A stretch of DNA of 64,000 nucleotides, taken from the NCBI RefSeq assembly GCF_009931435.1, contig NZ_CP043415.1, one strand, 5' to 3'. Every line of letters begins with the position of its first letter. Position 1 is the stretch's first letter. The notes under the pieces are model-generated. The model ran no database searches. It was not told the DNA's origin and saw only the letters and a program-made list of their open reading frames with translations. A program made the translations under genes and the position numbers. Shown here piece by piece: positions 1 to 32,524 of this stretch. The stretch is from Escherichia coli (GTDB taxonomy: Bacteria; Pseudomonadota; Gammaproteobacteria; Enterobacterales; Enterobacteriaceae).

Positions 1-515
1 TGTCTGCGCACCTTTTCCAGGCGCGCCTGCGCATACTGTTCTTCTTCCTGTGTGATATGTTCTGTCACATAGCCTTCTGTATCATAGCGGCAGGCACCGG
101 CTTTCATGGCGCCAAGATAGCTTTCTGAACGGGTGATGGCCTTCAGTGCCCTGCGCAGTTTTTTATGAGAGAGCGGGATATTCCGCTGAGACACCTCATC
201 CAGTAAAACTTCCCGGATACCACAGGCAAGAAGCCGGGGCGTGTTACCGTCAAACAATCCCGGCCACCAGGGTTTCAGAGTGTTCACCGCCTCATCCAGC
301 GAGGGCAGCGTCAGATAAATGGACAGCGCCTGTCTGGCCTGTGCTTTCTTCGCCGCCAGCTCTGCTTCCCGGGCAGCCTTCTCCGCCAGTTTCTGCTTTT
401 TCACCTTCCATTTTGGTGGCGTGGTGACATTGATGATGGTTTTCCGGCTGCGGACAGGCGTCTCTCCTTCCGTTTTCCGCTTCAGTGTCAGTACCGGTCG
501 TTTTTGCTCTGCCAT
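1..515 (-). CDS. finO: FinO fertility-inhibition RNA chaperone; ATG at 515-513, 3' end beyond window start
   Basis: Minus-strand translation from 515 reads [40 protein letters not shown]..., matching FinO; no stop before position 1 so absent from ORF track; no IS interruption seen. Confidence 0.85.
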
Positions 516-617
516 GCTTACTCTGACCTTCGTGAAAATATGCCCTGCAGGCCGTTGAAACAACTCATCGTAACAGGAAGTTAATTTCAACGACCTTTAA
601 CGTATAAATACTGACAA

Positions 618-1478
618 TTAAAGATATTGTTTAAACCATTGTGTCTGCACAGCTACTACACGTTCAAAAAACGCGCCCTCATAAATATCATAATGGCATG
701 CATCAGCTTCCTCGTATAATTCCTTAGTACCAGAAGCAACAGCATCATATAATGCTCTTCCCTGTTCCGGTGGATTAACGCTATCCTGGCCGGCAATAAC
801 AACCAAAACTGGGCACTGTACTTTGGCTGCGCTCTCTGCCGGTTTATATTGCAACGTTTCCATGACCGTAAGGAAAGGTATTTTTATATCCATTTCGGGA
901 TGCCGGGCTTTGATTTTCTCGAAGAATACCTTCGATTCATCATCACTTAGTACCCGTGTAACCCCCACAAACATCTCTTTCCCGGTGTTTTTCTTCTTCT
1001 CTGCCATTTTATTCAGCGTGGATAGAAAAGACGCTCTCTCCGATTCATTCATCTCTCCGGTAACCAGAACCTCACCGTCAGCAAAAGCCAGCTGGCTGAC
1101 AATACATTTTACGCGTTGGTCCTGCGCAGCTGCACTGAAGACATGCCCCCCTCCCAGCGATGTTCCCCATAACCCAATACGCTGATTATCAATACATTCC
1201 TGCTTTTCTGCCCAATTGATAACTGAAATAATATCTTCGGTCTGCATTGCAGGAACCAGACGACCTCGTTCTCCATCACTCTCACCGAATCCTCGATAAT
1301 CAAAAGTAATCGTTGCGAATCCTGCTTCTGTGAAGGCATTCGCAAAGCAAGGGAGCAGAACATTCCTGATACCGCAAAACCCATGGCATAAGATAATCAA
1401 AGGATGTTTTATATTTCCTTCAGGAACACGAAATGTCAGGGCAATACCTTCAGAGAGTTTGTGATCCGTAATTTTCAT
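618..1478 (-). CDS. alpha/beta hydrolase, 286 aa (orf286-like gene between traX and finO)
   Basis: ORF track 286 aa; G-x-S-x-G nucleophile elbow (GTSLGGG); position between traX and finO as in R100-type plasmids. Confidence 0.7.
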   Translation of the reverse strand: MKITDHKLSEGIALTFRVPEGNIKHPLIILCHGFCGIRNVLLPCFANAFTEAGFATITFDYRGFGESDGERGRLVPAMQTEDIISVINWAEKQECIDNQRIGLWGTSLGGGHVFSAAAQDQRVKCIVSQLAFADGEVLVTGEMNESERASFLSTLNKMAEKKKNTGKEMFVGVTRVLSDDESKVFFEKIKARHPEMDIKIPFLTVMETLQYKPAESAAKVQCPVLVVIAGQDSVNPPEQGRALYDAVASGTKELYEEADACHYDIYEGAFFERVVAVQTQWFKQYL

Positions 1479-1536
1479 AAATATCCTGTGTTATGTTGTT
1501 TATTAATAAGCAGAATCAGCGTCAGTATCATACCAG

Positions 1537-2283
1537 TCACAACGCCAGAATGCCCAGCACAGCCAGATGACAGCCATAGAACGTCGGGAAAAAATCTCCG
1601 GGCCAGAAACGGGGTAATGATTTTCCTACACGCGACACCAGACCAACGGTCAGCACCGTCATCACAAGACCAGCTACAGCCGCCGCATCACTGGAGGCAA
1701 GGTTAAGTGCCGGAATCACGGCCAGCAGGCATGCAACCAGCACCAGACGTTCCGTTCTGTCTTCCGCCCGGTACAGCCGGTGACTGACTGCCAGCATCAG
1801 CAGCCCGGCAATGCCGTAACTGGTGCCGGACAAAGGCCCCCACAGTGCCATCAGGAGAATGGCCGCTGCAGTACGCCACCCACTGCGCGTTTCACACCAT
1901 GTCAGCACCTGTGCCGCCACTGCAAAGGCAAACAGGATATTCCCCTCATACCAGGGAAAGCCGGCCAGATAATATGCGAACTGGGCAATCATCGCCCATC
2001 CCCACAGCCGGTTAATGGCCGGTTGCCGGATATGCGCATGACGGGACAGATTCAGCCCCCACACCAGGGCAAACAGCGGAAAGGCCCCACGCCCAACCAG
2101 AAACATCCACGACTGGTCCAGATGCCGAATGCGGTTTGCATGGTCCAGAACCATCAGCACCAGTGCCACCGTTTTGATGATATCCCGCTGTCCGGGTGAC
2201 CAGACCAGCAACGACTGCAACCAGGTATCGGTCCGGGCAGCCAGTGAATCATTACGTGTTGTGTTCGTGTTATCCGTTGTCAT
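1537..2283 (-). CDS. traX: TraX pilin N-acetylase, polytopic membrane protein
   Basis: 248 aa hydrophobic ORF immediately downstream of traI; F tra operon synteny. Confidence 0.85.
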   Translation of the reverse strand: MTTDNTNTTRNDSLAARTDTWLQSLLVWSPGQRDIIKTVALVLMVLDHANRIRHLDQSWMFLVGRGAFPLFALVWGLNLSRHAHIRQPAINRLWGWAMIAQFAYYLAGFPWYEGNILFAFAVAAQVLTWCETRSGWRTAAAILLMALWGPLSGTSYGIAGLLMLAVSHRLYRAEDRTERLVLVACLLAVIPALNLASSDAAAVAGLVMTVLTVGLVSRVGKSLPRFWPGDFFPTFYGCHLAVLGILAL

Positions 2284-2302
2284 CAGCGTTTATCTTCCTG
2301 TG

Positions 2303-5300
2303 TCAGTCTCCGCCCAGGGTTTTCTCTTTCTGCAGGTCACGAACCATATCCCGCTCCATCTGCTGCAGTCGCTCCTGCAGCAGATTTTCCCGGGCAACCT
2401 CCCGGACCGCTTCCCGCACCCGTTGTGGTTCACGCAGTACACTCTCCGGCAGCGCGGCTTCCCGTTCAGATATGGCAGACCGGTCACGCTCCAGCCCGGC
2501 AATATCCCTGACAGCCTGCTCTGTTTTGCCGTCCGGCAGGTCAGGTTTGTTCTCTGCCATTTTACGGACAATTTCATCCGCACGGCGTTCCGTTTCACGG
2601 CGGATGGCCTCTTCAGCCTGCCGCTGTGCCAGTACCTCTGCCGTGACCGGTTCGCCATTTCCGGCTCCCGGCTGAACGCTGTTGTCCGGGATATCCCCCC
2701 ACACGCGACCACCGGTGATGGTACCGGGATTCCACGGACGACCTTCACCGGCGATTCTTACCACCACACCGCTGTCAGGATTATCACGGGCAATCCGGAC
2801 ACCATCCTGCATATTATCAGCCAGCAGGCTCTCTCCGTTACGGCTGCCCTGCAGGGCCACGAACTGCGCATCCCCGCTGCCTTTCACCCGGCCTTCACCA
2901 CTGAAGCCCCGCAGCCCGTTTCCGTCATCCGTGGTCAGCGGATTCAGCCAGATACCGGCGGACTTGCCGTTACGGTCAAAAGCCGGCAGTGCCACATACG
3001 GTTGCGGATATTTACGTCCCGGAGCAATAAACCGTGCAGGACTGTCTCCCCCGGCCAGCCCCGCCTGACGGAGAACGGCACGGCCTGCCGCCACGTCCCG
3101 CAGCTCCCGCGCCGTACTGAACAACCGCTCTGCATTCATGACCTCCCGGTCCGGTTTCGGCTCAAACACATCGTGGGCAGTTCCTTTCTGTACGGCATTG
3201 TTGATGGCATCCGTCCAGCCCTGACGGTTATCGGTGTACACCTGCACATGCTGCTTCATACGCGACAGGGCCACATAGGCTGACTCAAAGCCGGCCATCT
3301 GTTTCCGGTTACCTTCCGTGCCTTCAAGCGCAATGGCAAAGGTTTCACTTGCCCCCTGCGCACCGTGAGCGGTGATGGCATAGGCCAGGTCAATATGTTG
3401 CTCTGCCTGCTCCTGGCCGGGGCGAATCTCCCGGGTCTGCAGTCCGTCCGACAGCGTGACACTGTCACCGGAAACCGCTGTCACCGTCCAGACGCTGTTG
3501 GCCACATAACCGCGCTCCCGGTCACTCTTCGTGAAGCGCATCCGGTCACCGGTTCCCACCCGGATGGTGTCCGGAGTGTATAGTGTGACGCCTTCAGCCA
3601 CCGCCTCCCGGGGCGAAATCAGCCGCGTGTTACCTTCCGCATCCTCCAGGGTTATCAGCCCGTCATCCTTACTGATACCGGCAATCCGGTGATACACATT
3701 ATCCACCAGGGCAAGTGCGTCCCGATGTGTCTCCCAGGTGGAGAGACGACGCAACTCCCCGTCGCGTATATTCGCTGTGTTCAGGACAGGCACCATGACC
3801 TGCTCTTTTCCCAGCTCACCGGCCTTTTCCAGTGCATCATGAATCATGCTGTTCAGCACGCGCCGGTCCTCATTCAGGTGCGTAACAATCAGCGTCTGCT
3901 CCCGTGCTTCCGGTGTCCTGCCGGTATAGTCGCGGACAATGGCTTCATACAGTGTCATGGGGACATCCGGAAAAGCCTCGCCTTTCAGCATCGCTTTCTG
4001 CTGCGCTTCTGCCAGTTTCGCTTCCTGGCTGTGACTGAACTCCGTCACGGAGTGCTCCGGTGCCCATGCGCCCTCCAGACGTGGCACCTGAGACGGTTTC
4101 ACACTCTCAAGCCCGGACAGTGCCCTTTCCACATCCCGGTTAATCAGGCTGTATACCGCCTCCCGCAGTTCCGGCGTCTGACGCACAATCTCCTTCATGA
4201 TGGCCACATCGGCAGCACTGCGCGTCTGCTGGAGACGGAAAGGCTGACCGGGCGCGATGGCCTGCAGCTGGTCCGTGTCACCGCTGGCCACGGCACGACC
4301 ACCACCGGCCGCAATCAGGGCGTATGCCCGTGCCATGTCGGTATTGCCCACCATTGAGCTCTCATCGAGCAGGAACAGCGTGTTGCTGAAATCCGGCGTT
4401 TCTCCGCTGCGCTGCTGCAGCTGCGTGTCATGCAGAAAGGACGCCAGTGTCTGTGCATCCACGCCTGCGCTGCGCATCTCCCCGACCGCACGGTGCGTGG
4501 GCCCCAGCCCAACGACACGGGGACGCTCACTCTCCGGCAGCATGTTCACGGCTGACATCACCGCCCGGAACTGTGTGGTCTTACCCACCCCGGCATACCC
4601 CTGCACCACCGTGAAACGGTCGGACGTTTCCAGTATCATGCGGGTGGCGGCACGCTGTCCTGATGTCAGTTTCTCCATGAGTTCGCCAGGTACTCTCTCC
4701 ATCAGCGGCGTGACCGCCTCCTTACCCTCGAGAATATGGCGAAGAATGCTCTTTTCTGCCTCATACGACGCACGGGAAACCAGCAGGTCTGTGCCATAGC
4801 CTTTAGCCACATCCACATGCAGTAAATCACCCCGTTTTATCTGCGCATCGATTTCCCGCCCCAGTTCAGTAAAACTGGTTCCTTCTGCAGCAAACGACTT
4901 TGCCTCTGTCAGCAGGTCCACATGGCTGAAGGCCAGGTTTTTACTTTCCACCACCGGAAGGGCCAGATGAATGGCCTGCTGTGCCGGCGTGTGAAGTGCG
5001 GACTTCTGATGACTGATAGCCGTTTCCAGCGATGTCTCACCGGCACGCGCCTTTATCTGCTCAGAAACCACCGTAAAGGAGGGATGGCGGGCAAGTTTTT
5101 CCGCAGTACGGGTTTCATCCAGTGAGGAATACAGCCGGACATCACGACCGCTGCGGGCCAGACCGTTCAGGGTGGCGTTGTCCATTGCCATCTGTGTGAC
5201 GGAGGCAAAAACCTTCGCACTGTCGCTGACGGAATGCCCGGGCGTTTCCACCCAGCCGTTCTCCAGCTTCAGTGCCGTGAACGGTGAATCAGCCACAGGC

Positions 5301-7573
5301 AGGGTGGCCGGTTCAGCCCGCCCCGGCACAACAACCGTCATCGCATCTTCACTGACGGATGCCACCTGCAGGCGGTCACCGCCGGAGACGCGGAGTCCGG
5401 GAATTTTCCCTGTCACCCTCAGTCGCTCGCCGTCTGCCACCGGCATTTTTTCCGGCCGGAACAGCGACCAGCTGCTGTCCAGGGAGGAAATACGCACCAC
5501 CTGCGTTTCACCCTGCGCATCCCGCAGGGTCAGGCTGTGACTCTGCGCCGTCACCCGGTCGATAACATAGCGGTCATGACTGCGTGTCTCCGGGTTCCAC
5601 TGCTCCATCACCATCCCCGGACGGTACATATCCCGCAGATAACGGCTCCGGCTGTCCAGCCAGACCGGTGACAGGGCGGTCATGGTTACCTCCGGGTGTC
5701 CGAGCACGCCCTGTGTTTTCAGCTCACTGCGAATGGCCTGTGTCAGTATGGCCTGTTCCCGTACCCCGCTGACCTGTGCCACGCTCTCTTCTCCGGCTTT
5801 CACGCTGACCGCAAAATCTCCTGCCAGCCGGGCATAGCGGACATTACGGTCCGGTTCACTGATGATGGTGGCCGGTCGCTGTTCTCCCCCCTGCCAGCGA
5901 TATGTGTTCACCCCGGCATCCTTCATGGCCATCAGTGCACTGCCTGTACCGGTTCGCTGCCCGCTGTCGGTTATCAGGACCTGTACGTTATGACGTGCAG
6001 CACCGTCCAGCAGGGTTAACGTCTCTTTCAGGGAGAGTTTTTCGCCCTGGTCAACGATAACAGTACTGCCCGGCGTGAAGGCCATGCCTTCCAGCAGCTG
6101 ACGACGTCCGGTTATCAGCTCACCGGACAACCGTTCATCCTGCTTCAGGTTCATCTGCGAGCGACGGTCAGCAGCGATAATCTGCACCTCCCGCCCCTGC
6201 TCCCGGGCCATCATGACCAGTTCAGCCACCCGCTCACGCTGCCCGGCTGCACCGCCCTGCCCGGACACAATGGCCAGCGACGGACGGTCCTGTGCCAGAA
6301 CACTGACCGCATCGCTGTAACCAGCCGTCCGGGGGACACTTTTCTCCGGATGTACGGTCACCCGGTTCTGTTTCATGATGTCACGACTGAGTGCCCGGAC
6401 TGACAGCTCATCGAGCACATGAATCCCGGACGTGAACAGCCCCTTCTCACGATCGAGGGGGATAAGCTGCTCACGGCTGATGGCCTCATCGATACCGGCG
6501 CGTGCCCGTTCAATCACACCATTTTCCGGCGGCAGTATGCCGACCGTTCTGGCCAGCACGTCCGTGTACGTAAACTGCACTTTTCGTTCACTTAATCCGG
6601 CAATGGCCTGTGTCACCGCCTGCTGCACATCCGGCCCCTCCTGTGAAACAGCCCCGGGCGCCTGCGTGCGGGTCTCCGCACGCTGATCCGCCGCGTCACG
6701 ATATGCCCGGATGTCGAACCCGGTTTCCTTCAGCGTCTGCATCCATTCAGCCATTCTGACTTCAGGATCGACGTGCTGTTTGGATTTTCGCGTATCCAGT
6801 GCCGCCACATCCCGGGATTTCAGCGAGGCATCTTCCCCGACGGCCTCCCGGATTGCCTGTGAGCGTCCGGAAAAGGCCTCCACCGGTACGCCCGGCATTT
6901 CCCACATACCGTGCTTACCCACCACTTCGGTTTCATAGCCCAGCGCCTCAACCTGCTCTTTCAGTTTTTCCCGGTAGAGCCTGCCAAAGGCAATCTGATT
7001 AGCGTACACATTCTCAATGAACCCCGTTTTCCCCACTTTGTCACTGCTCAGTGTCTTCCATTCGCCGTTATGCTGCGTGACATTAGCCACCACCGCATGC
7101 GTGTGTAACTGTGGTTCCTGATCGCGACTGGTGTCGTGGTTAAACAGTGCCATCACCAGATTACCGGTCAGCACCGTTTCTGACTGTCCGTCCGTCATCA
7201 CCCGTGTGGAGGCCAGCGCCTCCACCTGACGAACAGCAAAGTCCACGGCCTGGTTATGTGCATCAATCAGGCGCTTATCGCCACCTAACATGGCCATCAT
7301 GGAGACACTTTTGGGGGCGGAGAAGGTCAGGTCGTAGCCGGGACGATGCCTGTTACTGCCATCCTGCATGCGGCTTAGATCCGCTCCGTCCGGCAGCCTT
7401 CCCTCCAGAAGACGGGTAAAAACATCCTTATCGACACTGCCCTGCAGTCCCAGCTGTTCAGCCCCCCTGCCGGCCCAGCGTTCTCCCATGCTGCCCAGCA
7501 CATAGTAATTATCCTTGTCGGTATAATAGTTCCCGGCACTGCCGGCCGATCTGACCTGCGCGATACTCATCAT
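2303..7573 (-). CDS. traI: TraI relaxase/helicase, 1756 aa
   Basis: N-terminus [26 protein letters not shown] with tandem catalytic Tyr pairs, HTHAVVANV His motif, Walker A GYAGVGKTT; length equals F TraI. Confidence 0.97.
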   Translation of the reverse strand: MMSIAQVRSAGSAGNYYTDKDNYYVLGSMGERWAGRGAEQLGLQGSVDKDVFTRLLEGRLPDGADLSRMQDGSNRHRPGYDLTFSAPKSVSMMAMLGGDKRLIDAHNQAVDFAVRQVEALASTRVMTDGQSETVLTGNLVMALFNHDTSRDQEPQLHTHAVVANVTQHNGEWKTLSSDKVGKTGFIENVYANQIAFGRLYREKLKEQVEALGYETEVVGKHGMWEMPGVPVEAFSGRSQAIREAVGEDASLKSRDVAALDTRKSKQHVDPEVRMAEWMQTLKETGFDIRAYRDAADQRAETRTQAPGAVSQEGPDVQQAVTQAIAGLSERKVQFTYTDVLARTVGILPPENGVIERARAGIDEAISREQLIPLDREKGLFTSGIHVLDELSVRALSRDIMKQNRVTVHPEKSVPRTAGYSDAVSVLAQDRPSLAIVSGQGGAAGQRERVAELVMMAREQGREVQIIAADRRSQMNLKQDERLSGELITGRRQLLEGMAFTPGSTVIVDQGEKLSLKETLTLLDGAARHNVQVLITDSGQRTGTGSALMAMKDAGVNTYRWQGGEQRPATIISEPDRNVRYARLAGDFAVSVKAGEESVAQVSGVREQAILTQAIRSELKTQGVLGHPEVTMTALSPVWLDSRSRYLRDMYRPGMVMEQWNPETRSHDRYVIDRVTAQSHSLTLRDAQGETQVVRISSLDSSWSLFRPEKMPVADGERLRVTGKIPGLRVSGGDRLQVASVSEDAMTVVVPGRAEPATLPVADSPFTALKLENGWVETPGHSVSDSAKVFASVTQMAMDNATLNGLARSGRDVRLYSSLDETRTAEKLARHPSFTVVSEQIKARAGETSLETAISHQKSALHTPAQQAIHLALPVVESKNLAFSHVDLLTEAKSFAAEGTSFTELGREIDAQIKRGDLLHVDVAKGYGTDLLVSRASYEAEKSILRHILEGKEAVTPLMERVPGELMEKLTSGQRAATRMILETSDRFTVVQGYAGVGKTTQFRAVMSAVNMLPESERPRVVGLGPTHRAVGEMRSAGVDAQTLASFLHDTQLQQRSGETPDFSNTLFLLDESSMVGNTDMARAYALIAAGGGRAVASGDTDQLQAIAPGQPFRLQQTRSAADVAIMKEIVRQTPELREAVYSLINRDVERALSGLESVKPSQVPRLEGAWAPEHSVTEFSHSQEAKLAEAQQKAMLKGEAFPDVPMTLYEAIVRDYTGRTPEAREQTLIVTHLNEDRRVLNSMIHDALEKAGELGKEQVMVPVLNTANIRDGELRRLSTWETHRDALALVDNVYHRIAGISKDDGLITLEDAEGNTRLISPREAVAEGVTLYTPDTIRVGTGDRMRFTKSDRERGYVANSVWTVTAVSGDSVTLSDGLQTREIRPGQEQAEQHIDLAYAITAHGAQGASETFAIALEGTEGNRKQMAGFESAYVALSRMKQHVQVYTDNRQGWTDAINNAVQKGTAHDVFEPKPDREVMNAERLFSTARELRDVAAGRAVLRQAGLAGGDSPARFIAPGRKYPQPYVALPAFDRNGKSAGIWLNPLTTDDGNGLRGFSGEGRVKGSGDAQFVALQGSRNGESLLADNMQDGVRIARDNPDSGVVVRIAGEGRPWNPGTITGGRVWGDIPDNSVQPGAGNGEPVTAEVLAQRQAEEAIRRETERRADEIVRKMAENKPDLPDGKTEQAVRDIAGLERDRSAISEREAALPESVLREPQRVREAVREVARENLLQERLQQMERDMVRDLQKEKTLGGD

Positions 7574-9771: not shown

Positions 9772-9912
9772 GATGATATTCCGAAGAAAAAAAGTCAGTC
9801 GGACTGATTATTAATGATGAAAAGATTAATAACCGTTAAATTCCGGCTTCGCCGGCAACACTTCACGGTCGCACAAAGAATTTGCACAACCGCTCAGTGT
9901 TTTCATATTTAT

Positions 9913-9950: not shown

Positions 9951-10023
9951 CTTTCCGGGGTTGGACAACGAGCAAAGCGAGGCGTCAGTCAGGAGGCCGG
10001 TCAGACCAGCCTCCGGAAGATAA

Positions 10024-17368: not shown

Positions 17369-17369
17369 C

Positions 17370-22197: not shown

Positions 22198-22940
22198 TTT
22201 CTGCCCTCCTCTGCCGGAATAAATTCCACCTTCAGGAAGCGATCGCCGGGAACGGCGCTCACCCGTGCCGGGACCTGATCAATGCCGAGGCGCTGGCAGA
22301 GCACACCGTTCTGGTCAAAGTAAACACGGCTGTCCAGAGACTTCTGCATCTCCGGGATACTGCCCTGCACGAGGATAATTTTGCTCTCCAGTATGGGCGG
22401 CGTCTGGCGTTTCATCCAGGCCACCTGCGCCGGATCATCGCCATTGATGAAATACAGCGTCTGGTTAAAAGGAACATACTGCAGCGGATTCATCACTTCA
22501 CCCTGACGGGCAAACACCCGCCCTTCGTTATCCCGGATATCCGCAGCCAGTCTGACGGACGGGTCAAACAACCGGCTGCCGTATTTCTCCGTGCGTCCGA
22601 TACCGGGCACGGCAGGGGGCCGCAGACTGTTGCGGATCACCCGCTCCTTAAAGGCATCCATTTTCCGGCCCATCTCACCGGACTGCTCCAGTGCCGTCAG
22701 GCGCTGCATGATCACCGTCAGCATGTCCGGCTCCTTTACCGGCCACAGATCGCCCCAGGTACCAAGATCGGCGGCGGCCACACTCTGCCCCCATATCAGC
22801 AGGGCAATCAGCCCCCGGCATCTCATGGTTCCGCCCTCATTCGCCGGGCAATATCCTGCTGGATTTCCCGGGTGATATCCGGTGCCCCCTGTACCACAGC
22901 AGGCGACACCAGAATGACCGCGTGGTGTTTCTGCTGCCAC
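22194..22940 (-). CDS. traW: TraW pilus assembly protein; true start probably internal (overlaps trbI)
   Basis: Position between trbI and traU; track ORF 248 aa. Confidence 0.88.
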   Translation of the reverse strand: MAAETPRGHSGVACCGTGGTGYHPGNPAGYCPANEGGTMRCRGLIALLIWGQSVAAADLGTWGDLWPVKEPDMLTVIMQRLTALEQSGEMGRKMDAFKERVIRNSLRPPAVPGIGRTEKYGSRLFDPSVRLAADIRDNEGRVFARQGEVMNPLQYVPFNQTLYFINGDDPAQVAWMKRQTPPILESKIILVQGSIPEMQKSLDSRVYFDQNGVLCQRLGIDQVPARVSAVPGDRFLKVEFIPAEEGRK

Positions 22941-23209
22941 GCCTGCAGGCTGGCTTCCAGTGCCGTGTTAAAACGCGCTGAAAGGGCTTTTGACTGCGCT
23001 TCTGACAGTTGTTTCTGACTGGCGCTGTCAAAAAACGCATCCACGGTCTGTTTCATGTTGAAGGCGACAGTCACCGGTGCGTTCAGTCTGACAATGCCGT
23101 AACTGACGGCTGCGTTCAGTAACACCATTGCCAGGCATCCCGGCACCGTCCACCACCAGTGGCTGCGTCGTTCTGCCGTGACGTCGGCGGGTTTCTGCGT
23201 TGAACTCAT
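22823..23209 (-). CDS. trbI: TrbI
   Basis: 128 aa with one TM segment, directly after traC. Confidence 0.75.
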   Translation of the reverse strand: MSSTQKPADVTAERRSHWWWTVPGCLAMVLLNAAVSYGIVRLNAPVTVAFNMKQTVDAFFDSASQKQLSEAQSKALSARFNTALEASLQAWQQKHHAVILVSPAVVQGAPDITREIQQDIARRMRAEP

Positions 23210-25833
23210 GCCACACTCCTGTATTTCTCATGTTCTTCCAGCCAGGCTTCCAGCGAAGCCATTTCCGGCCCTGACTTCTTCCACGCCAGCTGCCACACTG
23301 CCTCATGAATACTCAGCCCCTCTTTACGCTTCTGCTGCACAAACTCAAAATCCGGGCCGTCAGAGCTGTACATGGCGCGGCTTAACGGGTCCACAAACAG
23401 ACGGTGCCAGGAGGAATGGTTTTCCACCTGCAGCAGGAAGGAACTGAACCACTGGTCTTTGGCCGCACCAAACTTACCAATCATGTCGCGCTGCAGTGGC
23501 AGGAACTGGTCCGGATACAGTTGGTTGTATTTCGCGAACTCCTTCGCACTCTGTTTGAGGATAATTTTGTAGGAGGAGTTACCCCATGCCGCGCGGGCAG
23601 CACTGGAGGCCTTATCAGAGTCAAAGTCGACGATGTTCTGTGTGATGGTGATATAGGCACCGGTATGACGGCGGGCCGTACGGTAGCCCTTCTCAATAAA
23701 TTCACCGACCTTGTGATTTTTGAAGTCCAGCAGACGCCAGCCTTCATCAATAACGTTCAGTTTCTTGAGGTTACGCGGCGTGCGGTACATCCTGTTCTCG
23801 ATGTAGATAATCAGGGAGAACATCACCGCAACCAGCAGTGACGGACGGTCTTCCAGTCCGCCCAGCTCCAGCACCACCATTTTTGCGTCATCCCGCAGGG
23901 ACGGCTCATCAGAGTTAAAATACTGGCCGTAAGTGCCGTTGGCAGTGTACTGGTCAAGCAGCACAATCATTTCGTCCAGACGGCTGCGGATAGTCGGTGA
24001 CTCGGCATACTGCTCGCTGTCACTGGCGTTTTTCAGGAAATCCACCACGTCATCAATACGTGCTCTGTTCTCTTTGGCCAGCCAGGAGGCTCTGACCGCC
24101 TGCAACAGCAGACCTTCATGCACTTCATCCAGGTTACCGTTGGGGCTGGCCATCACTGACAACTGGTCACGGACACGCTCCGCTGACTGGTCAATATCGG
24201 TGATGTTCGCAAACGGGTTAAAACGCAGGGTTTCACCGTCCAGATACACCCCGCCCATGTTCTCACACAGGGACTTGTATCCATCCCCCATGTCGAACAC
24301 CACGGCAAAGCCTCCGGAGTCCAGCACGCTGCGGATAAGTGGCTGTATCAGCCCGGTTTTACCGGCCCCGGAGGTGCCACAGACCGCCATGTTGTAGTTG
24401 GTGTTATTCATCCCCCGGAAGAAAATATCGATAAACGCCAGCTGGTTACGGTAGGTGGGTGCCAGCAGACCTGCCGGTGTCAGGGGGTTATCCGCCACTA
24501 ACGGCATCAGGTTGGCAACATTAAAGCTCTCTGCGCGCTGAACCACTCCGGCCTCTTTCAGCTGTTTAAACAGCCCTTTCCCGGCCATAAAGGGCAGGCA
24601 GGTCAGGAAATTGCGCATGTGGTTAAAGCGCGGTGAAATCAGCTCAAAACCGTTTTTACGAAAGCTGTTCAGGATGTCCTGCTCCACTTCCAGTGCCGTT
24701 TCATTATTGTCCTTGCAGAAGGCTGTGATGTTGAGGAAGTAGGACACGACAGAGGACTGACCGGAGCCCAGCCGCTGACGCAGTTCCCCCCACTCCTTCG
24801 CCTCTTTCTCCACGGACGGAAACCATTTGGCATAGGAGGTCTTCGACTTTTTCTCCAGGTCCATGTACTTCAGGTTGGCTTCGCTGTGGGTTTTCACCTG
24901 GTCTTCCACCACCAGAGTCAGCGTCAGGATGAACGGACAGGAGATGGACAGTTCCGGGTTCAGCAGGTTGCTGTAGTTGTCGGCCATGTTCCACAGGAAG
25001 GCGATTTCCGGGTTACGGGCCAGATGGAAATTCAGGATGCGGGCCGTGCTGTTCCTGCCGTTCTCACGCAGGCCCAGCGTCAGGTAATCAGCCCGGACTT
25101 TCAGATCAAAACTGTCCTCCACACACTGATAATTCAGATCAGAATACGGGTCCAGCTGACGTCTTTTCGGGTACAGGGAATCCGGGTTATGGTTAATCAT
25201 CTCCCCGACAATATCGATAAAGGCCTGTGCATCCACCGTCTGTGTGGTGATACTGGCCCCCTGTAACGACGCCCGGATGATTTTCACCAGGTTTTCCATT
25301 TCCAGAATGTCGGCCCGGCTTTTTTTCTTCGAGGGAGAACAGTACGAGATAAACACCCGGTAATGGCGCAGGGTCAGGGGCAGATTCATTCCCTCCGGCA
25401 GCGGAAACTGTGTCGCTGCCGCTTTCATATAATAGGCCCGGGTAATGGCGTTAAACCGTTCAGCCTGTTCACCTGACCAGGAGAACTCACGCAGCCCGTA
25501 TTCAATCCTGTCACCAACCAGCTGACTGGACATCAGATGGATACACAACGGAATACCGCGCGGCAGTTTGGTGCGCAGCATGTGATCGAGGGCCTCCACA
25601 ATGGACTCATTCGCCCCATTGATGGGGATGGCTTCCAGCATAAAGCCCATCGTGGTGTCATTCATGAACAGACCGGATTCCTGGTTGTAATCACGGTACG
25701 GCAGCAGACGGCTGAACTGCGGGAAGCTCATTTCGCCCAGAACTTCATTGGCCTTTGCGGATTCGTCAGGCAGTTTCAGTGCTGTGACGAGGGAGTTAAC
25801 CGCCTGAGTGACGGCCTCAAGTGGGTTATTCAC
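23206..25833 (-). CDS. traC: TraC (VirB4-type ATPase)
   Basis: 875 aa; Walker A GTSGAGKT; synteny. Confidence 0.97.
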   Translation of the reverse strand: MNNPLEAVTQAVNSLVTALKLPDESAKANEVLGEMSFPQFSRLLPYRDYNQESGLFMNDTTMGFMLEAIPINGANESIVEALDHMLRTKLPRGIPLCIHLMSSQLVGDRIEYGLREFSWSGEQAERFNAITRAYYMKAAATQFPLPEGMNLPLTLRHYRVFISYCSPSKKKSRADILEMENLVKIIRASLQGASITTQTVDAQAFIDIVGEMINHNPDSLYPKRRQLDPYSDLNYQCVEDSFDLKVRADYLTLGLRENGRNSTARILNFHLARNPEIAFLWNMADNYSNLLNPELSISCPFILTLTLVVEDQVKTHSEANLKYMDLEKKSKTSYAKWFPSVEKEAKEWGELRQRLGSGQSSVVSYFLNITAFCKDNNETALEVEQDILNSFRKNGFELISPRFNHMRNFLTCLPFMAGKGLFKQLKEAGVVQRAESFNVANLMPLVADNPLTPAGLLAPTYRNQLAFIDIFFRGMNNTNYNMAVCGTSGAGKTGLIQPLIRSVLDSGGFAVVFDMGDGYKSLCENMGGVYLDGETLRFNPFANITDIDQSAERVRDQLSVMASPNGNLDEVHEGLLLQAVRASWLAKENRARIDDVVDFLKNASDSEQYAESPTIRSRLDEMIVLLDQYTANGTYGQYFNSDEPSLRDDAKMVVLELGGLEDRPSLLVAVMFSLIIYIENRMYRTPRNLKKLNVIDEGWRLLDFKNHKVGEFIEKGYRTARRHTGAYITITQNIVDFDSDKASSAARAAWGNSSYKIILKQSAKEFAKYNQLYPDQFLPLQRDMIGKFGAAKDQWFSSFLLQVENHSSWHRLFVDPLSRAMYSSDGPDFEFVQQKRKEGLSIHEAVWQLAWKKSGPEMASLEAWLEEHEKYRSVA

Positions 25834-25992
25834 ATGAATTCCTTAGTTGAAAAATAAAGCGAGAAATGCGGTAGCCATGAAGGGAATACCTGTAATTAAC
25901 GCGCCATTTCCCGGCGCATATACAAAGATTTCTGTTTTCTGAATATCCACTCATGTTCATCCGGAATTAAATCACTATGTTCTGCGACTGAC

Positions 25993-26214
25993 TTATGCAT
26001 AATGTTTTCTCTGTCTTTCCTGATACGCCTGACATTCAACGCACAACGTCACACCGGGAAATATTTTCCGCCGGGCTTCCGGAATAGGATTTCCGCATGC
26101 TTCACAGAGATAAACAGGAATACCATGAGCATTTATTTTCTGGCGTATCCGGTTTATTCCTGTCATGGTCAGTTGTTCTGTCACTGAATATGCTTCATCG
26201 GCTTCATCACTCAC
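25993..26214 (-). CDS. traR: TraR (DksA/TraR-family C4 zinc finger)
   Basis: 73 aa; CEACGNPIPEARRKIFPGVTLCVEC four-Cys motif. Confidence 0.85.
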   Translation of the reverse strand: MSDEADEAYSVTEQLTMTGINRIRQKINAHGIPVYLCEACGNPIPEARRKIFPGVTLCVECQAYQERQRKHYA

Positions 26215-26348
26215 GGAATATTCCTCCCGACATGTTCTGACACGCTACCGCCCATCCCTTTTCACGCACAGGGCACTCGTTTTACAGGCAGATTTTGAAT
26301 ACAGAAAGCCCGCCGGCATTGCCGGCTGATATACAACTTCAGGGCCAG

Positions 26349-26864
26349 TTAATTAATACGTGGTTTTCCCCACGCAGACGGTTTAATAACAAAAAACACG
26401 CTGGATGGCTGATGATAAACATCCTGGTTATCAATATAAGGCGCTATCCATAATGCTGCCGTCTGCTCACCCGTTCTTAGCGGACGAGGAGGTGTTACCG
26501 GCGTAACTGAACTGACCGGAACAACCGTTTTCACTTCCCGGGCAGCGGTAAACAGCGGGCGAGGTGCCAGCAGTTTCTGCTCCGGATGTGCTGTCACCGC
26601 AGGTCTGCTGCCGGACGGAGTGGTCGCGGTGACGGTCTGCACCGGCATTGTCCGGAAGTTCCCTTCAGCCAGGCGCGGCAGTGATGCCGCAACCGGCTTT
26701 GCTTCTGAGGACTGCTCCAGTTTTTTGGCCTTCTCATTGGCCTGCTCCATCGTCATACAGGTATCGGATGTGGTGGCGTTACACTCAAATTCCGTACTGG
26801 TTCCGGCACAGCCGGAAAGTAATAAGGTCCCCAGCAGAGGAATAAAGAAAGAAATCTGTTTCAT
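26349..26864 (-). CDS. traV: TraV outer-membrane lipoprotein
   Basis: 171 aa; lipobox LLSGC. Confidence 0.9.
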   Translation of the reverse strand: MKQISFFIPLLGTLLLSGCAGTSTEFECNATTSDTCMTMEQANEKAKKLEQSSEAKPVAASLPRLAEGNFRTMPVQTVTATTPSGSRPAVTAHPEQKLLAPRPLFTAAREVKTVVPVSSVTPVTPPRPLRTGEQTAALWIAPYIDNQDVYHQPSSVFFVIKPSAWGKPRIN

Positions 26865-27112
26865 TGTCCCTCACCTTTCTCATCGCAGTTCACAAAATCC
26901 TTCTTCAAATCCCTGACCGTACAGGTTTTTACAATGTCAGGATTTTCAAAAACCGTACTCCGTGATGATTTATAAACATATGCCACAATGCGTTTCCCAC
27001 CCGCATCAGGTTCTGGTGCACTGACTTCACATAACGGAGGTGTTATTCCGGACTCATACAGCACCGGATAATTTATTTTTTTGACGCTGCCATCAGAAAC
27101 CAGCTTATTCAT
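26861..27112 (-). CDS. trbG: TrbG
   Basis: 83 aa ORF between trbD and traV; position only. Confidence 0.55.
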   Translation of the reverse strand: MNKLVSDGSVKKINYPVLYESGITPPLCEVSAPEPDAGGKRIVAYVYKSSRSTVFENPDIVKTCTVRDLKKDFVNCDEKGEGQ

Positions 27113-27458
27113 CGAAGGGCTCCTTATATTTCTGAATAATTCTGTCGATTAGTTCTTTCACCGGAACAGATTTTCCGCCACCGGATTGTCCGGCAACCAC
27201 AATATGCCCCGGAGAAGAAAATAAACTCATCGACATACCCTTCTTCATCACACCGACAGCAGCCATATTAAAATTGTCCGGCAATGACTCAGAACCGAAT
27301 TTCTCCGGTGCAGGAAGTACGATTCTTGTGGCGCAGTTACTGAGAACAGCATGCATAAAATCATCTGACACGGTTTTACCCGGCACAGAGAGGGCTGTAA
27401 TAACATTAATATTACGCATGTTCATTTTTATCTCCGTTGTTTCTGTTTGTTCTGTCAT
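27105..27458 (-). CDS. trbD: TrbD (true start probably internal; F TrbD is about 65 aa)
   Basis: Position between traP and trbG. Confidence 0.5.
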   Translation of the reverse strand: MTEQTETTEIKMNMRNINVITALSVPGKTVSDDFMHAVLSNCATRIVLPAPEKFGSESLPDNFNMAAVGVMKKGMSMSLFSSPGHIVVAGQSGGGKSVPVKELIDRIIQKYKEPFDE

Positions 27459-28002
27459 CAGGAAGATAAACAGGGCATTTCCTGATTTTTCCCGGCAGGG
27501 AAGCGTCTTCCGTATAAACTTCCTTCAGATGTTCATCTGCGGTTACCACCCGGATACATTTCATTTTTCCGGGTCGCACCGGATATTTCCCGGTGATCGC
27601 TGCCAGCGAGACATACATCAGTGCCAGTGTTGCCCATAATGCGGTGACCAGTTGCATCAGTGACCGGTCAGTCTCCCTGACATAATCTGCAGCATCAGCC
27701 GCGCGGTAATGGCAGATATCCTGTATTTCTGATCTGCCTGAAGAATCAGAGGAAGAAAACCAGCATTCACTGACCGGGAACTGTCCGGCAGGTGCTGTTT
27801 GTCTTACGAAGTTAATCTCCTTAACCAGTAATTTCCCCGGCGTGGTGTTGTCCTTCCATAAAACAAACAGAGCCATCAGGGCCATTGTGGCCAGTGGCAG
27901 AATGACGGTGTACTTCAGACACCAGAACAGTCCTCGCAGAACCCGGGCGACAACATACCGGGCGGCATGGCACGCCTGACGGGACGACATATTATTTGCC
28001 AT
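27412..28002 (-). CDS. traP: TraP
   Basis: 196 aa membrane ORF after traB, same length as F TraP. Confidence 0.7.
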   Translation of the reverse strand: MANNMSSRQACHAARYVVARVLRGLFWCLKYTVILPLATMALMALFVLWKDNTTPGKLLVKEINFVRQTAPAGQFPVSECWFSSSDSSGRSEIQDICHYRAADAADYVRETDRSLMQLVTALWATLALMYVSLAAITGKYPVRPGKMKCIRVVTADEHLKEVYTEDASLPGKIRKCPVYLPDDRTNRNNGDKNEHA

Positions 28003-29419
28003 CGTTGCCCCCTCCCTGGCTGCCGGACATAAACTGCTGCGGATTCAGGTTGCCCAGCTGCTTCAGCATCTGGTCAGTATTAAAGCCGTTAAGATGACTT
28101 TCAGCCGATGGCGGAACAGGAACCGGACTTTCCGGATTGTCTTCTTCCGCTCTGCTCTGCGTGCGTTCCAGCGCCATCTCTTCCACGGTTTTCAGCTGGA
28201 AGCCGTCCTGGAACACCACGGTCACTTCGTTGCCCGCACCAATCGGTATCACCGGGTGATACTGTTCGGCACGTTTGATGTAGTAGTCACTGAGCGTCTG
28301 TGCGGCTTTCGATGCGCCGCCACCGATACCCATTTTCAGGACATCACCAGCCCCGTAAGCGGCTGTGGCACCCAGCCCGACAGCCGGCTGGGAGGCGCGC
28401 TCCATTCCCTGACCGATACCGTCAACAAATCCCGCGCCCCATGCCCAGCCGAGGATTTTGCCGTTACGCATCACCACTTCGCCCTTGATACCGTTTTTAC
28501 CCCGGAAGCTGACATGCCCCTTAATCGGCATATCAATAGTTTTGCCGTCCTTCAGGCAACTGATATTGCGGGTGCGTACAATGGCACGCTCACTGGACAC
28601 ATCCCCCCAGGCTTCCAGACCCACAAAACATCCCGTTGCGTCATACGTCTTGCTGTTCGGCATTTCCACCAGGCCGGTGATACGCAGCTGCATCGGCACC
28701 GTGGATTCATTACCGGTGACAGAGGCATTGGCATCCGCCCCTTCAATCAGCATGGCTTTCGCAAAACTTCCTGACGGAATGTACGGCAGTGATGGTCCCT
28801 GTTTTCCCTCATTACGGGTAAACACCTTACGCTGTATCCGGTTAGGCACCGGCACAGACTGGTACGTCACCTGTGGTGGTGGCGTGACACCATTCCCGGG
28901 ATAAAACGCCGTCGGCGGTGGAACAGCAACGCTGCCCTGCGGCGGGAAGGATACGGGGGTGTTTCCTGGCTGTGGTTCGCCTTCCGGGCCGGGCGGTGAG
29001 GCAGGCATCTGCGGTACAGGCTCACCGGTCGCCGTGACGGGATTAGCACCCAGGGCTTTTACCTGCTCTGCCAGGGCGGCATTGTCCTGTCCCAACTTTT
29101 CAATACGACGCTGGTCATCACCGCGCTGTTTGTTCAGAACATCCAGCTCACGACGGATTTCCTCATACTGCTTCTGCATCTGCGCTGCCGTCACCTGCAT
29201 CTCGGTGGTGGCATGCTGACGCACCTTGTCATCAAAGGTCGTATCCACCACACCGGTCATATCCGGCACAGGCTCCTGTTCAGCCACGGTTTCACCGTTA
29301 CCGGACATGTCCACATCAGACAGATACAGTGCCCCACCAATCGCGGAGGCTGTACCGACAACCACAATCCCCAGCCACAGGTACTGCTTGCGTTTCACAA
29401 TGGTATTGATACTGGCCAT
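27992..29419 (-). CDS. traB: TraB (VirB10-like)
   Basis: 475 aa; Pro-rich linker; synteny. Confidence 0.93.
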   Translation of the reverse strand: MASINTIVKRKQYLWLGIVVVGTASAIGGALYLSDVDMSGNGETVAEQEPVPDMTGVVDTTFDDKVRQHATTEMQVTAAQMQKQYEEIRRELDVLNKQRGDDQRRIEKLGQDNAALAEQVKALGANPVTATGEPVPQMPASPPGPEGEPQPGNTPVSFPPQGSVAVPPPTAFYPGNGVTPPPQVTYQSVPVPNRIQRKVFTRNEGKQGPSLPYIPSGSFAKAMLIEGADANASVTGNESTVPMQLRITGLVEMPNSKTYDATGCFVGLEAWGDVSSERAIVRTRNISCLKDGKTIDMPIKGHVSFRGKNGIKGEVVMRNGKILGWAWGAGFVDGIGQGMERASQPAVGLGATAAYGAGDVLKMGIGGGASKAAQTLSDYYIKRAEQYHPVIPIGAGNEVTVVFQDGFQLKTVEEMALERTQSRAEEDNPESPVPVPPSAESHLNGFNTDQMLKQLGNLNPQQFMSGSQGGGNDGK

Positions 29420-30147
29420 CAGTTGCCCTCCCCGTCACGGATGACATACACATCCATGCGCGCACCTGCCAGTAACTGGCTGGCAGGCTGGCTGAACATC
29501 ACGGCACGGGTTCCCGGCTGCCAGAAGTCACTTTCCCGGATATTCAGGGCAGACAGCGTTTTATTTTCCACGGCAAAGCGGACCATCTTCAGGTGATTCC
29601 CCGTCCATACGGCATCTGCCACTGAAGACAGCCCCGCCGGGGCCTGCAGGGTTTCCTTTGTCACTGGGACCTGATACCAGCCTGCGGGTAATTTTCCGCC
29701 ACGGACGGCCTGGCTGATGGTCACAAGCAGGGATTCGTAAGGCGTGGACGTTTCCCACGCACCGGCTTCTTCTCCGGTTCCGCGCAGGTCACTGACCAGC
29801 TGAATGGTACGCCCCGCGCCTTCACGGGGAACGGCCTGAATGGAAAGATTCAGACCACGTTCTGTTTCCAGAATGAACGTAAAGGGCTTTTTGTTGACGG
29901 TGGCAACCACCACACCGCCGGAGGCGGTCTGCTCATTATTGGTCAGGGCACCATCCAGACTGTTCACGGCGATAATCCGGTCACCGGGAACGGTAAACAG
30001 ATTCGGGCTGGTATTGCTGATGGCAATACTGGCCTGACCACCGTTCACCATTGGCACCACGGTGGGGGCCAGCGTACCGTTTGCGGCCATCACGCTGCAG
30101 GAAAAAAACAGGCTGCCGAATATTATTGCCGTATTATTTTTTCTCAT
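29419..30147 (-). CDS. traK: TraK (VirB9/secretin-like)
   Basis: 242 aa with signal peptide; synteny. Confidence 0.9.
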
Positions 30148-30700
30148 CGTCTGTTTCCCCGAAATTATCCAGCCAGGTCACCCCGTTTTCCCGCTTCAGA
30201 ATAAGGATGTAATGTTTGATATCAGTGAAAGGTTTTGAATCACCAATCCAGGTTTTAAGCACACCTCGAATTTCCACACGGCCATACTGAGGCCAGACAC
30301 GAACACTGGTCTGGAAAAAGGCTGAGTTCACGTTATCGTTTTTAATACGCTTCGCTTCTTCAGCCAGAATAACTTTCATCTGGTTCTGTGCGCCCGGGCG
30401 GATATATTGCAGAAGCGCCTGATGTGAGGCATCGGCGGTTTCTGATGAAACATTCAGACGGAGGGCAATAAATGACAGCGCCATCTGCTGTAAATAAGAG
30501 GCGTCGGCACTGTTCTGTGACACGGCAAAGGGGGCATTAAATGCCATTGGCGTCACGGCAGTGCGTTGCTCATTCTGAAGACGGTAGTTATTCACCCCCT
30601 GAATGACGTTAACAGAGAGGCTGAGAACAATAAGCACTGACATAAATATAAAGGCGATGGCCATTACACGACTGGTACTTAAACGGGCACCGTGTTCCAT
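30134..30700 (-). CDS. traE: TraE
   Basis: 188 aa with N-terminal TM; synteny. Confidence 0.9.
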
Positions 30701-30721
30701 ATAACAATCCTGGTATCAGTT

Positions 30722-31033
30722 CTATTTAATCCACTGCCGGAAACACGAATCGGGAACATTATGAAAAATACCGCGCAGCAGGGCTGTTGGCATATACCAG
30801 TAAATCAGGTCACGTAACCAGGAACTGCCCCGCCCTTTTTTCAGTTTTTTAATCCCGAAATAAACCAGAACCGCTGCACCAATACCGAACAGATATTTCG
30901 ATGTTGTGATACCCCAGCCAATACAGATTGCTGCGGGGATCAGTTCATCCAGTGGCAGGCCAAACCAGCGGCTCTGGTTGGTCAGTGTTTCCGGGAAACG
31001 ATATTTCTTAAGTTTATTCTCGTCTCCCGACAT
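30722..31033 (-). CDS. traL: TraL
   Basis: Small membrane ORF after traA. Confidence 0.85.
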
Positions 31034-31047
31034 CGTTTTATTTCCTG

Positions 31048-31413
31048 TCAGAGGCCAACGACGGCCATACCCACAGCAATAAATACAGAGATGATGGCAA
31101 AACCGGCCAGGAACTTGACGTTTTTGGTCATCATGTACATGACCGCACCGACCAGAACTTCAGCCAGAACAACCCATTTAACAACACTGGAGTCCTTACC
31201 GAAGGTCGCCTTAACCGTGGTGTTACCACTTGCCATCAGGTCCTGACCACTGCTGCCGGCGGCCATCGCCAGCTGCGGGAAGAACATCATCAGAACAGCA
31301 GCCGGGATCACAGCGCGAGCCAGGCGAAGCATATTCAGACGAGTGAATTTAGAAAAAAACGACTTCTTTTTGACGGGCGCAGAAACACCCTGAACACTTA
31401 AAACGGCGTCCAT
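31048..31413 (-). CDS. traA: TraA propilin (F-type pilin)
   Basis: 121 aa; long leader then mature pilin ...[70 protein letters not shown]. Confidence 0.95.
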
Positions 31414-31455
31414 ATGATTCCTCTGTTTAATATTGATAGTGAAAAATAAAACTCT

Positions 31456-31671
31456 TTATATATCGTCTATGCTTTCAGCTTCCTCCTTTACTAAAGATGC
31501 ATTATAAAAGTCTGGAAAACGATTGAGATGATCTTTTAGTCTAATGAACACCTCATTAGTTTTTGTTCTTCCGCTACGATCTCTAGCTGCTAAAAGTTTC
31601 TGATTGGTTGTCTCATCCAGTATTAATAAGACTTTGTTACCCGGTGCGGCTCTGGTTCTCCCTCTGCTCAC
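31456..31671 (-). CDS. traY: TraY (short R100-like form, RHH), GTG start
   Basis: 71 aa basic ORF between traJ and traA; GTG start preceded by GGAGGA. Confidence 0.7.
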   Translation of the reverse strand: MSRGRTRAAPGNKVLLILDETTNQKLLAARDRSGRTKTNEVFIRLKDHLNRFPDFYNASLVKEEAESIDDI

Positions 31672-31806
31672 GTTTCCTCCGCATAATTACTTGAGATAAT
31701 AAAATATAATCATATAAATCATCTTTAATGAAAACAAAAATAGAGTAAATTATATTAACAAAAACGGGAACCAATGGTTCCCGCAAAGTAACAATAAGTT
31801 AACAGC

Positions 31807-32454
31807 CTATCTTCCCAATATTTCTTTTACTTTAGCATATAAAGGAAGTATCTTTTCCGTTCTAATCATTTCATCCAACCAGAGATCTCTAGAACTAAAT
31901 CCATGTCGTTTAAATAATTTCATGGTTTTCTTCTTTGATTTAGACACAGTGATGTTCATCTTTGCTGATGAATAATGATGGCTAAACCCTATCAGATATG
32001 GCTCAATGCCTACATATTCATCAGATAGTACAATTAATTCATTGGTGTATTTAGACACAACAAACGATGACAGATTATCATTTGCTACCCAAATAAATCT
32101 CCAGATAAAGAAATAGCCGCATGGTGTGATAACACTTTCTATGATCACACTCCATAACATATTATTAAGTAATATGTCATTATTACAATTTACACCATAA
32201 ACTGAAGAGCATGATTCAATCTCTGCTCTGGATAACTGTAATTTACATTCCAACGTTAAACTATCAAACCATTCATCACATGAATTAAATGACGATCTGA
32301 TAAGTTTTTCAAAGCGGTTATTTTCCTGAATAAAAGAACCATCCTCGAAGCGGACACATACTGGATATTTTAAAAACGAAATAGCCTCTCCAAGACTATG
32401 AGGGAAATGCAATTGACTGATGAGTGCTCTTTCTCTACGATCCATCGCACACAT
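31807..32454 (-). CDS. traJ: TraJ transfer activator (non-F allele); track ORF extends to 32532 but ATG at 32454 with RBS at 32461-32466 is the likely start
   Basis: Position between traM and traY; start lies under the finP stem-loop I complement. Confidence 0.7.
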
Positions 32455-32524
32455 AGGAACCTCCTCTAAGGATTCTATGGACAGTCGATGCAGGGAGTGG
32501 CTGCTCCCTGCATCGGCGATTTTC
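32448..32524 (+). ncRNA. finP: FinP antisense RNA (candidate)
   Basis: Two stem-loops antisense to the traJ RBS/start: CATAGGAA...TTCTATG, then CGATGCAGGGAG-TGGCTG-CTCCCTGCATCG followed by GCGATTTT. Confidence 0.45.

Follow-up and report, generated by a model that had tools for sequence, protein, structure and literature searches.

The finO gene and its neighbours

The analysed sequence, here called the window, is a stretch of 64,000 nt from an F-like plasmid of Escherichia coli (contig NZ_CP043415.1, assembly GCF_009931435.1). At its very beginning lies finO (1..515, minus strand), which is placed distal to the tra operon and downstream of traX, the order on the minus strand being traI-traX-orf286-finO. 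A preliminary description of this DNA had claimed that finO has its start codon and is free of insertion sequences within the window, and both statements hold: the ATG was found at 515..513 on the minus strand, the reverse-strand translation of positions 1-515 yields codons 1-171 of 185 with none interrupted before the open reading frame leaves the window at position 1, and the DNA is continuous at ~114-123, the counterpart of the position at which IS3 resides in F (finO nt ~393-402). The window translation is the same as the first 171 residues of the 185-aa FinO of identical relatives, and the full-length protein of these relatives matched NCBIfam NF010317 with 347 bits (cut-off 136), Pfam FinO_N (PF12602) with 131 bits and ProQ/FinO (PF04352) with 96 bits; the structure PDB 1DVO was matched with an E-value of 1.5e-85. 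Residues known to contact or act on stem-loop II (SLII) of FinP are Trp36, Lys46, Lys81, Arg121, Lys125, Arg165 and Lys176 (PMC3105414). The first six are all kept within the window, and Lys176, which like the others except Trp36 is a cross-linking residue, lies beyond its edge and is conserved in the relatives. Together with a dN/dS of 0.15 for finO compared to R100, the conservation of the RNA-contact residues argues that the function of FinO has been maintained.

Upstream of finO, an orf286-type gene encoding an alpha/beta hydrolase (618..1478, minus strand) is located between finO and traX; it is 96% identical to the R100 ORF found at the same position and matched NCBIfam NF047920 (UilS-like AHL lactonase) with 513 bits at a cut-off of 400. 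A literature search on orf286, alone or in combination with finO, revealed nothing relevant. The tra series closes with traX (1537..2283, minus strand), ahead of orf286 and finO; this gene was identified by tblastn with TraX of F (92% identity) and by the annotation in relatives.

FinP and its putative promoter

The gene for the antisense RNA FinP (32448..32523, plus strand) was identified by a match to Rfam RF00107 over the entire model (1-76 of 76; 99 bits at a gathering threshold of 45, E 6.5e-19) with every pair canonical, by its fold and by a terminator-like call at the 3' end. The RNA comprises stem-loop I (SLI, 32452-32479), the spacer GACA (32480-32483), SLII (32484-32517) with the loop UGGCUG at 32498-32503, and the 3' tail GAUUUU (32518-32523). 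Both a 4-nt spacer and a 6-nt 3' tail are needed for FinO binding (PMC3105414), and FinP carries both. The predicted fold with its two stem-loops has a dG of -39.3 kcal/mol (z = -6.4), and none of 200 shuffled sequences was as stable. Among seven alleles, the stems either do not vary or differ by G-U changes only; since this is invariance and not covariation, the structure of the RNA rests on family membership and thermodynamics. SLI contains the complement of the traJ ribosome binding site AGGAGG (32460-32465) and of the traJ start codon ATG (32452-32454), which bears out the earlier claim of a finP-like antisense gene with two stem-loops over the traJ RBS. Likewise, the extent of 1 to 32524 that had been given for the system correctly brackets finO and the 3' end of finP.

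A consensus scan revealed a putative finP promoter, TTGACT-17-TACGAT (32413..32441, plus strand), that lies within the opening codons of traJ. In its -35 element the leading pentamer TTGAC is invariant in the seven alleles compared, the -10 element TACGAT is the same as in F- and pSLT-type alleles, and a GATC at 32439-32442 overlaps this -10 element.

The traJ leader, TraJ and traM

On the opposite strand, finP is overlapped by the 5' untranslated region of the traJ mRNA (32449..32556, minus strand), which matched Rfam RF00243 at 32556-32449 with 115.5 bits (gathering 50) and contains stem-loops Ic and IIc, a 5' hairpin and the RBS AGGAGG (32465..32460) together with the ATG. A PJ-like sequence, ATGACA-17-TATATT (32561..32589, minus strand), has 10 of 12 matches in a consensus scan and aligns with the corresponding region of F and R100; it is the candidate traJ promoter. 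The traJ coding sequence (31807..32454, minus strand) specifies a protein of 215 aa, the activator whose translation FinP would block. TraJ gave no Pfam match and was assigned by NCBIfam: it matched the equivalog NF010273 (PRK13719 group) with 507 bits (cut-off 445) over residues 1-215 of 215, but the R100-type equivalog NF010272 with only 28.6 bits, and it is 25% identical to TraJ of F. The upstream neighbour is traM (32645..33028, minus strand; Pfam Tra_M, E 1.7e-53), whose product is 82% identical to TraM of F. Together, traM, traJ and traY form an allele-specific regulatory cassette that is different from that of F but complete.

Distribution of the finP/traJ allele

The finP/traJ allele of the window is present in ~205 PLSDB plasmids and is distinct from the alleles of F, R100 and pSLT. 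A minor sister allele was found in 12 PLSDB plasmids, of which the 8 listed are mostly of pig origin. Over 150 nt the two differ solely in the 6-nt tip of SLII, which is exactly inverted, UGGCUG in the window allele versus CAGCCA in the sister allele. Inversion of a hairpin tip might be a mechanism that diversifies fertility-inhibition alleles, in that a single template switch would swap the loops of both FinP and traJ and could yield a new antisense specificity class; we put this forward tentatively and regard it as rather doubtful. If it were true, a one-step tip inversion would allow escape from cross-repression by the FinP of a co-resident relative.

The tra operon and the rest of the plasmid

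The genes from traY to traI make up the tra operon (2303..31671, minus strand), on which the TraJ/FinOP switch would act; it was delimited by the ORF list and by mapping of F proteins. It is complete and collinear with that of F, and the Tra and Trb proteins of F map to it in full length with 87-100% identity, except for a TraY of the short type. The genes essential for transfer of F are full-length and 92-100% identical, apart from the regulatory cassette, and the reading frame of trbF departs from F near its 3' end. Outside the operon, an IS100-type element of ~1.9 kb at ~38.9-40.7 kb splits a ParB-like gene of the leading region. Megablast searches with window positions 1-2300, 1-25000, 33001-45000 and 39001-64000 against PLSDB and the complete E. 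coli genomes of RefSeq revealed plasmids whose tra half is 100% identical to that of the window, and the IS100-type insertion at ~38.9-40.7 kb is absent from all of them. A search for proteins identical to the IS-truncated ParB-like product gave a single match, a draft contig of 20 kb (GCA_009899175.1) that ends at the IS and is therefore uninformative on finO. Relatives are typed as conjugative by MOB-suite, and the plasmid carries aerobactin.

Probable repression of transfer

Taken as a whole, the FinOP fertility-inhibition system of the window is most likely (we estimate roughly 85%) genetically intact and of the classical F-like type (MOBF12 group A), and it presumably represses transfer. 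The plasmid would then probably be transferred at a low, repressed rate. The preliminary description had called the plasmid probably transfer-repressed, and we infer the same from an open and conserved finO, FinP with its promoter-like site, an intact traJ leader and TraJ, and a complete tra operon. In a survey of 256 F-like plasmids, all classical (group A) ones were finO+, F being the sole exception (PMC5102898), and deletion of finO in a natural IncF plasmid of an AIEC strain led to ~100-fold higher tra expression (PMC12491478). By analogy with R100, R1, pSLT and this AIEC IncF plasmid, a Fin+ phenotype would be expected, with a finO-dependent drop in transfer and tra expression of at least 100-fold.

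The mechanism that we propose follows what is established for F, R1, R100 and pSLT, and it is extended to the plasmid studied here by inference. FinP, an antisense RNA of ~76 nt, would be transcribed from a constitutive promoter within the first traJ codons, and both of its loops would pair with the stem-loops complementary to them in the traJ leader, hiding AGGAGG and the ATG. FinO, whose gene comes last, after the tra operon, would bind SLII plus its 3' tail, shield FinP from cleavage by RNase E at the GACA spacer and accelerate formation of the duplex of FinP and traJ mRNA. With TraJ scarce, the PY promoter would be off and the tra operon of ~30 kb silent in most cells; compared to the derepressed state, transfer would be reduced ~100- to 1000-fold, and new transconjugants would be transiently derepressed.

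It is conceivable, albeit unlikely, that all parts are present and repression is nevertheless weak or absent, be it by an inactivating missense mutation in FinO, a low level of finO mRNA, a weak finP promoter or an override by host or environment. FinO differs from that of R100 at 20 of 185 positions, and activity is beyond what a sequence measures; small lesions gave rise to the drd mutants known for R1 and R100, and a paper of van Biesen and Frost from 1992 reportedly states, going by its title, that the level of repression varies among F-like plasmids. Against this stand the dN/dS value and the full conservation of the listed RNA-contact residues. Moreover, full-length ORFs for this FinO variant occur widely, with 851 index blocks of the public collection containing the exact 185-aa protein; the -10 element of finP is that of functional alleles, and, as in R100, finO is preceded by orf286. 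According to the same 1992 work, the orf286-finO arrangement is said to go along with more finO mRNA and stronger repression.

Far less probable is damage to finO in its last 43 nt by truncation, frameshift or an IS, by which the C-terminal helix would be lost and the plasmid derepressed like F. It is true that the window stops at codon 171 of 185, with Lys176 outside, and that insertions do occur nearby, as in the relative NZ_CP144927.1 with an IS1A within the traX-orf286-finO stretch. However, the unseen target, in which the 14 remaining codons and the stop codon lie, amounts to a mere 43 nt, and the seven public loci in which the visible 515 nt recur all carry one and the same 43-nt continuation, which ends in TAA and completes a FinO of 185 aa. 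In addition, the annotation of three plasmids with 100% identity to the first 25 kb of the window includes a full-length FinO. Within 60 nt beyond position 1 of the window, the 3' continuation of finO is expected to read ...CAGAACCGGATCAAGGATGAGCTGCGGGCGATCCTGGCAGAATAA (alternate excerpt of the expected 3' end: ...GAACCGGATCAAGGATGAGCTGCGGGCGATCCTGGCAGAATAA).

That FinOP is intact but irrelevant, transfer being impossible through a defect elsewhere in tra or in oriT, is equally improbable: the altered 3' end of trbF and the IS100-type element in the ParB-like gene could be taken in its favour, but neither gene is known to be essential for transfer of F, the essential tra genes are full-length, the regulatory cassette is another allele but complete, and the relatives are typed as conjugative.

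An intact FinOP system is ordinary, as it is the default state of natural F-like plasmids, and the finding matters little beyond annotation. For the aerobactin plasmid, intact FinOP predicts the usual mode of spread, with most donors silent and new transconjugants transferring in short bursts. This is in contrast to a constitutive "superspreader" such as F, and helps to estimate the risk of transfer, although it is the default to be expected for natural IncF plasmids.

Comparison with F, pSLT and R100

F, which is naturally derepressed (finO::IS3), is similar in the structural tra genes, the proteins from TraA to TraI being 87-100% identical to those of the window; the FinP stems and the -10 element TACGAT are the same, and the 5' part of finO is 91% identical at the DNA level. 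Unlike in F, finO of the window is free of IS3 and is preceded by orf286, whereas in F it follows directly after traX. TraJ (25% identity), the short-type TraY and the finP loops set the two plasmids further apart.

The Salmonella virulence plasmid pSLT shares the -35 element TTGACT, the -10 element TACGAT, the GATC overlapping the latter and the length of the SLI loop, but its SLII loop (UGACAG), the sequence after the tail, the type of TraJ and the host are all unlike those of the window plasmid. Transcription of finP in pSLT is reportedly Dam-dependent, and, given the conserved GATC, the same may apply to finP of the window.

R100/R6-5 (IncFII), which have a functional finO after orf286, show the same order traX-orf286-finO. 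FinO of R100 is 89% identical without gaps to that of the relatives, the orf286 products are 96% identical, the stems, spacer and tail of FinP are identical and the architecture of the traJ leader is alike. The finP loops differ, since the SLI loop of the window is 2 nt shorter and its SLII loop is UGGCUG instead of GUCGCU, and the window therefore has a different specificity allele. The TraJ proteins belong to different equivalogs (NF010272 in R100, NF010273 in the window), and the structural tra genes of the window are of the F type and not of the R100 type.

The finP locus and the traJ leader

Rfam searches placed FinP, the antisense RNA, at 32448-32523 (+; 99 bits, gathering 45) and the traJ 5' UTR at 32556-32449 (-; 115.5 bits, gathering 50). 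The finP-like antisense gene with two stem-loops, proposed in the preliminary description, was borne out by this match, in which all modelled pairs were canonical, and by the predicted fold: stem-loop I (SLI, 32452-32479, +) is followed by a GACA spacer, and stem-loop II (SLII, 32484-32517, +) by a GAUUUU tail. The fold had an energy of -39.3 kcal/mol (z = -6.4), which none of 200 shuffles equalled, and SLII with its tail was the sole terminator-like site called in the region. Sequences complementary to the AGGAGG and ATG of traJ lie within SLI, so finP does overlap the traJ RBS. A finP promoter-like site (TTGACT-17-TACGAT, 32413-32441) lies at the expected place with a GATC overlapping its -10, and a site resembling the traJ promoter PJ (ATGACA-17-TATATT, 32589..32561) lies ahead of the traJ leader. 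The 215-aa TraJ matches equivalog NF010273 over its full length (507 bits, cut-off 445).

Alleles of finP

Alongside the window allele, the alignment of finP took in the F, R100 and pSLT types and three more alleles, seven in all. Both stems, like the leading TTGAC of the -35, were invariant or carried G-U changes only, and a covariation check found too little stem variation to bear on structure. Differences lay mostly in the two loops. FinP loops set allele specificity, and the loop-concentrated sequence differences agree with this role. The window allele, promoter included, occurs with at least 99% identity in 205 PLSDB plasmids.

A sister allele from CP122838.1 (L006) differs from window 32403-32555 at four positions (32498, 32499, 32502 and 32503). 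The SLII tip at 32498-32503 reads TGGCTG in the window, and the 1400-1405 region of L006 has the exact reverse complement, CAGCCA; outside 32403-32555 ~5% of positions differ between the two loci. Judged by sequence, this looks like inversion of a hairpin tip via template switching, which would exchange the loop sequences of FinP and traJ and might alter antisense specificity. The inverted tip was found in 12 PLSDB plasmids versus the 205 with the window form; the eight listed of these 12 were mostly from pigs.

The finO gene and its product

FinO exceeded the cut-off of NCBIfam NF010317 (347 bits, cut-off 136), matched Pfam FinO_N and ProQ/FinO as well as the crystal-structure chain 1DVO (E 1.5e-85), and was 89% identical to R100 FinO without gaps. 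Residues described to cross-link to FinP SLII (K46, K81, R121, K125, R165 and K176) and Trp36, critical for the chaperone role (PMC3105414), are all kept, only K176 lying past the window edge. The dN/dS of 0.15 versus R100 finO indicates purifying selection on the gene. That FinOP is intact but its repression weak or ineffective is unlikely alongside these features.

The reverse strand of 1-515 contains 171 uninterrupted codons opening with ATG, as expected from the earlier claim of a finO start codon, and the frame continues past the window start. A lesion there would have to lie within few nucleotides: in NZ_CP075700.1 and CP057933.1, relatives identical to the window across 2300 nt, finO is 558 nt long, encodes 185 aa and stops 43 nt past the window start. 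Five more loci with the identical visible 515 nt were obtained by exact-protein look-up, and the same 43 nt to TAA was present in 7/7, leaving a lesion in this stretch very improbable. The public collection lists the exact 185-aa FinO in 851 index blocks; the full-length form is therefore common. No IS was found in visible finO: the F sequence, which indeed carries IS3, breaks at nt ~393-402 and picks up again after the element, whereas the equivalent site (window ~114-123) is continuous. In NZ_CP144927.1, a 97.8%-identical relative, IS1A is located inside the traX-orf286-finO stretch; this plasmid could be a natural derepressed variant if IS1A sits in finO.

The transfer region

An F-like plasmid transfer region, coded on the minus strand, makes up the first 33 kb of the window. 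In order, traM (33028..32645), traJ (32454..31807), traY, traA to traI, traX (2283..1537), a 286-codon alpha/beta hydrolase gene (orf286, 1478..618) and finO (from 515, leaving the window at position 1) were found. Among public sequences, the closest relatives found were E. coli plasmids that type as IncFIA/FIB/FIC, MOBF, MPF_F and conjugative, and 100% identity was seen in seven of them across 1-2300 and in three across the first 25 kb. The exact parent molecule was found neither in PLSDB nor among the complete E. coli genomes of RefSeq. The F Tra/Trb proteins are all collinear and full-length in the window (87-100% identity) except for the regulatory cassette, in which TraM is 82% and TraJ only 25% identical and TraY is of the short type; a plasmid that is transfer-defective for other reasons is scarcely to be expected. 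Since F Tra/Trb identities stand beside a differing cassette, the plasmid is, by sequence comparison, a mosaic in which the structural genes are of the F type, the regulatory cassette is non-F and the traX-orf286-finO end is of the R100 type.

Further, trbF (15507-15932, -) matches F TrbF partly in one reading frame (residues 1-97) and partly in another (residues 94-126); its open frame of 141 codons overlaps the traH start, giving a C-terminus unlike that of F TrbF. TraD (7573-9771, -) has 732 aa and its counterpart in the F record 717; the two are 97% identical with gaps, and the difference in length is internal to the protein. In the F record used, vapBC lies between traD and traI; it is absent from the window.

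The orf286 product, 96% identical to the R100 ORF, matched NCBIfam NF047920, UilS family quorum-quenching N-acyl-homoserine lactonase (618-1478, -; 513 bits, cut-off 400). Many F-like tra operons may carry an AHL lactonase gene at their end, a point on which no discussion was found in the literature searched. Van Biesen & Frost are said to have found in 1992 that repression is stronger, and finO mRNA more abundant, where orf286 precedes finO; if true, this would strengthen the conclusion of repressed transfer, but it was given little weight.

Other RNAs and elements

Putative antisense RNAs above gathering were found inside traI (AS-traI, 4648-4724, +, 105.9 bits in Rfam), inside traG (AS-traG, 13346-13431, +, 105 bits) and in a leading-region gene (AS-pc01, 45997-46096, +, 98.9 bits). 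A hok/sok locus is represented by its sok antitoxin RNA (36558-36734, -). The window also contains a group II intron (51711-54059, -; D1-D4 133 bits, domain V-type match 66 bits) and an ALIL frameshifting pseudoknot, typical of IS3-family elements (60996-61112, +). Aerobactin genes (iuc/iutA) lie in the right half according to the annotation of relatives. An IS100-type element of ~1.9 kb at ~38.9-40.7 kb is missing from all near-identical complete plasmids. This IS21-family element (38916-40717, +), whose two IS100-like ORFs encode 340 and 260 aa, splits a ParB-like leading-region gene (flanks 38045-38863 and 40727-42022, -); the same insertion was seen in one draft contig (GCA_009899175.1, VTMS01000041.1).

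Probable repression of transfer

By analogy with F, R1, R100 and pSLT, for which the mechanism is established, FinP would pair with the traJ leader by loop-loop contacts that cover the RBS, and FinO would bind SLII and its 3' tail, guard FinP from RNase E and aid duplexing. TraJ would be kept low, the tra operon promoter PY off and the operon silent in most cells. When finO was deleted from a naturally occurring IncF plasmid, the expression of tra genes rose ~100-fold (PMC12491478), and F transfers 2-3 orders of magnitude above finO+ relatives (PMC5102898). In a comparison of 256 MOBF12 plasmids, group A was all finO+ with F itself as sole exception (PMC5102898), so an intact finO is what one would expect. 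From sequence and analogy, we regard FinOP as genetically intact and repressing with a probability of about 0.85.

In sum, the window allele of finP differs from those of F, R100 and pSLT, and the traX-orf286-finO end is of the R100 type, unlike that of F, which is without orf286; the system is a classical FinOP member.
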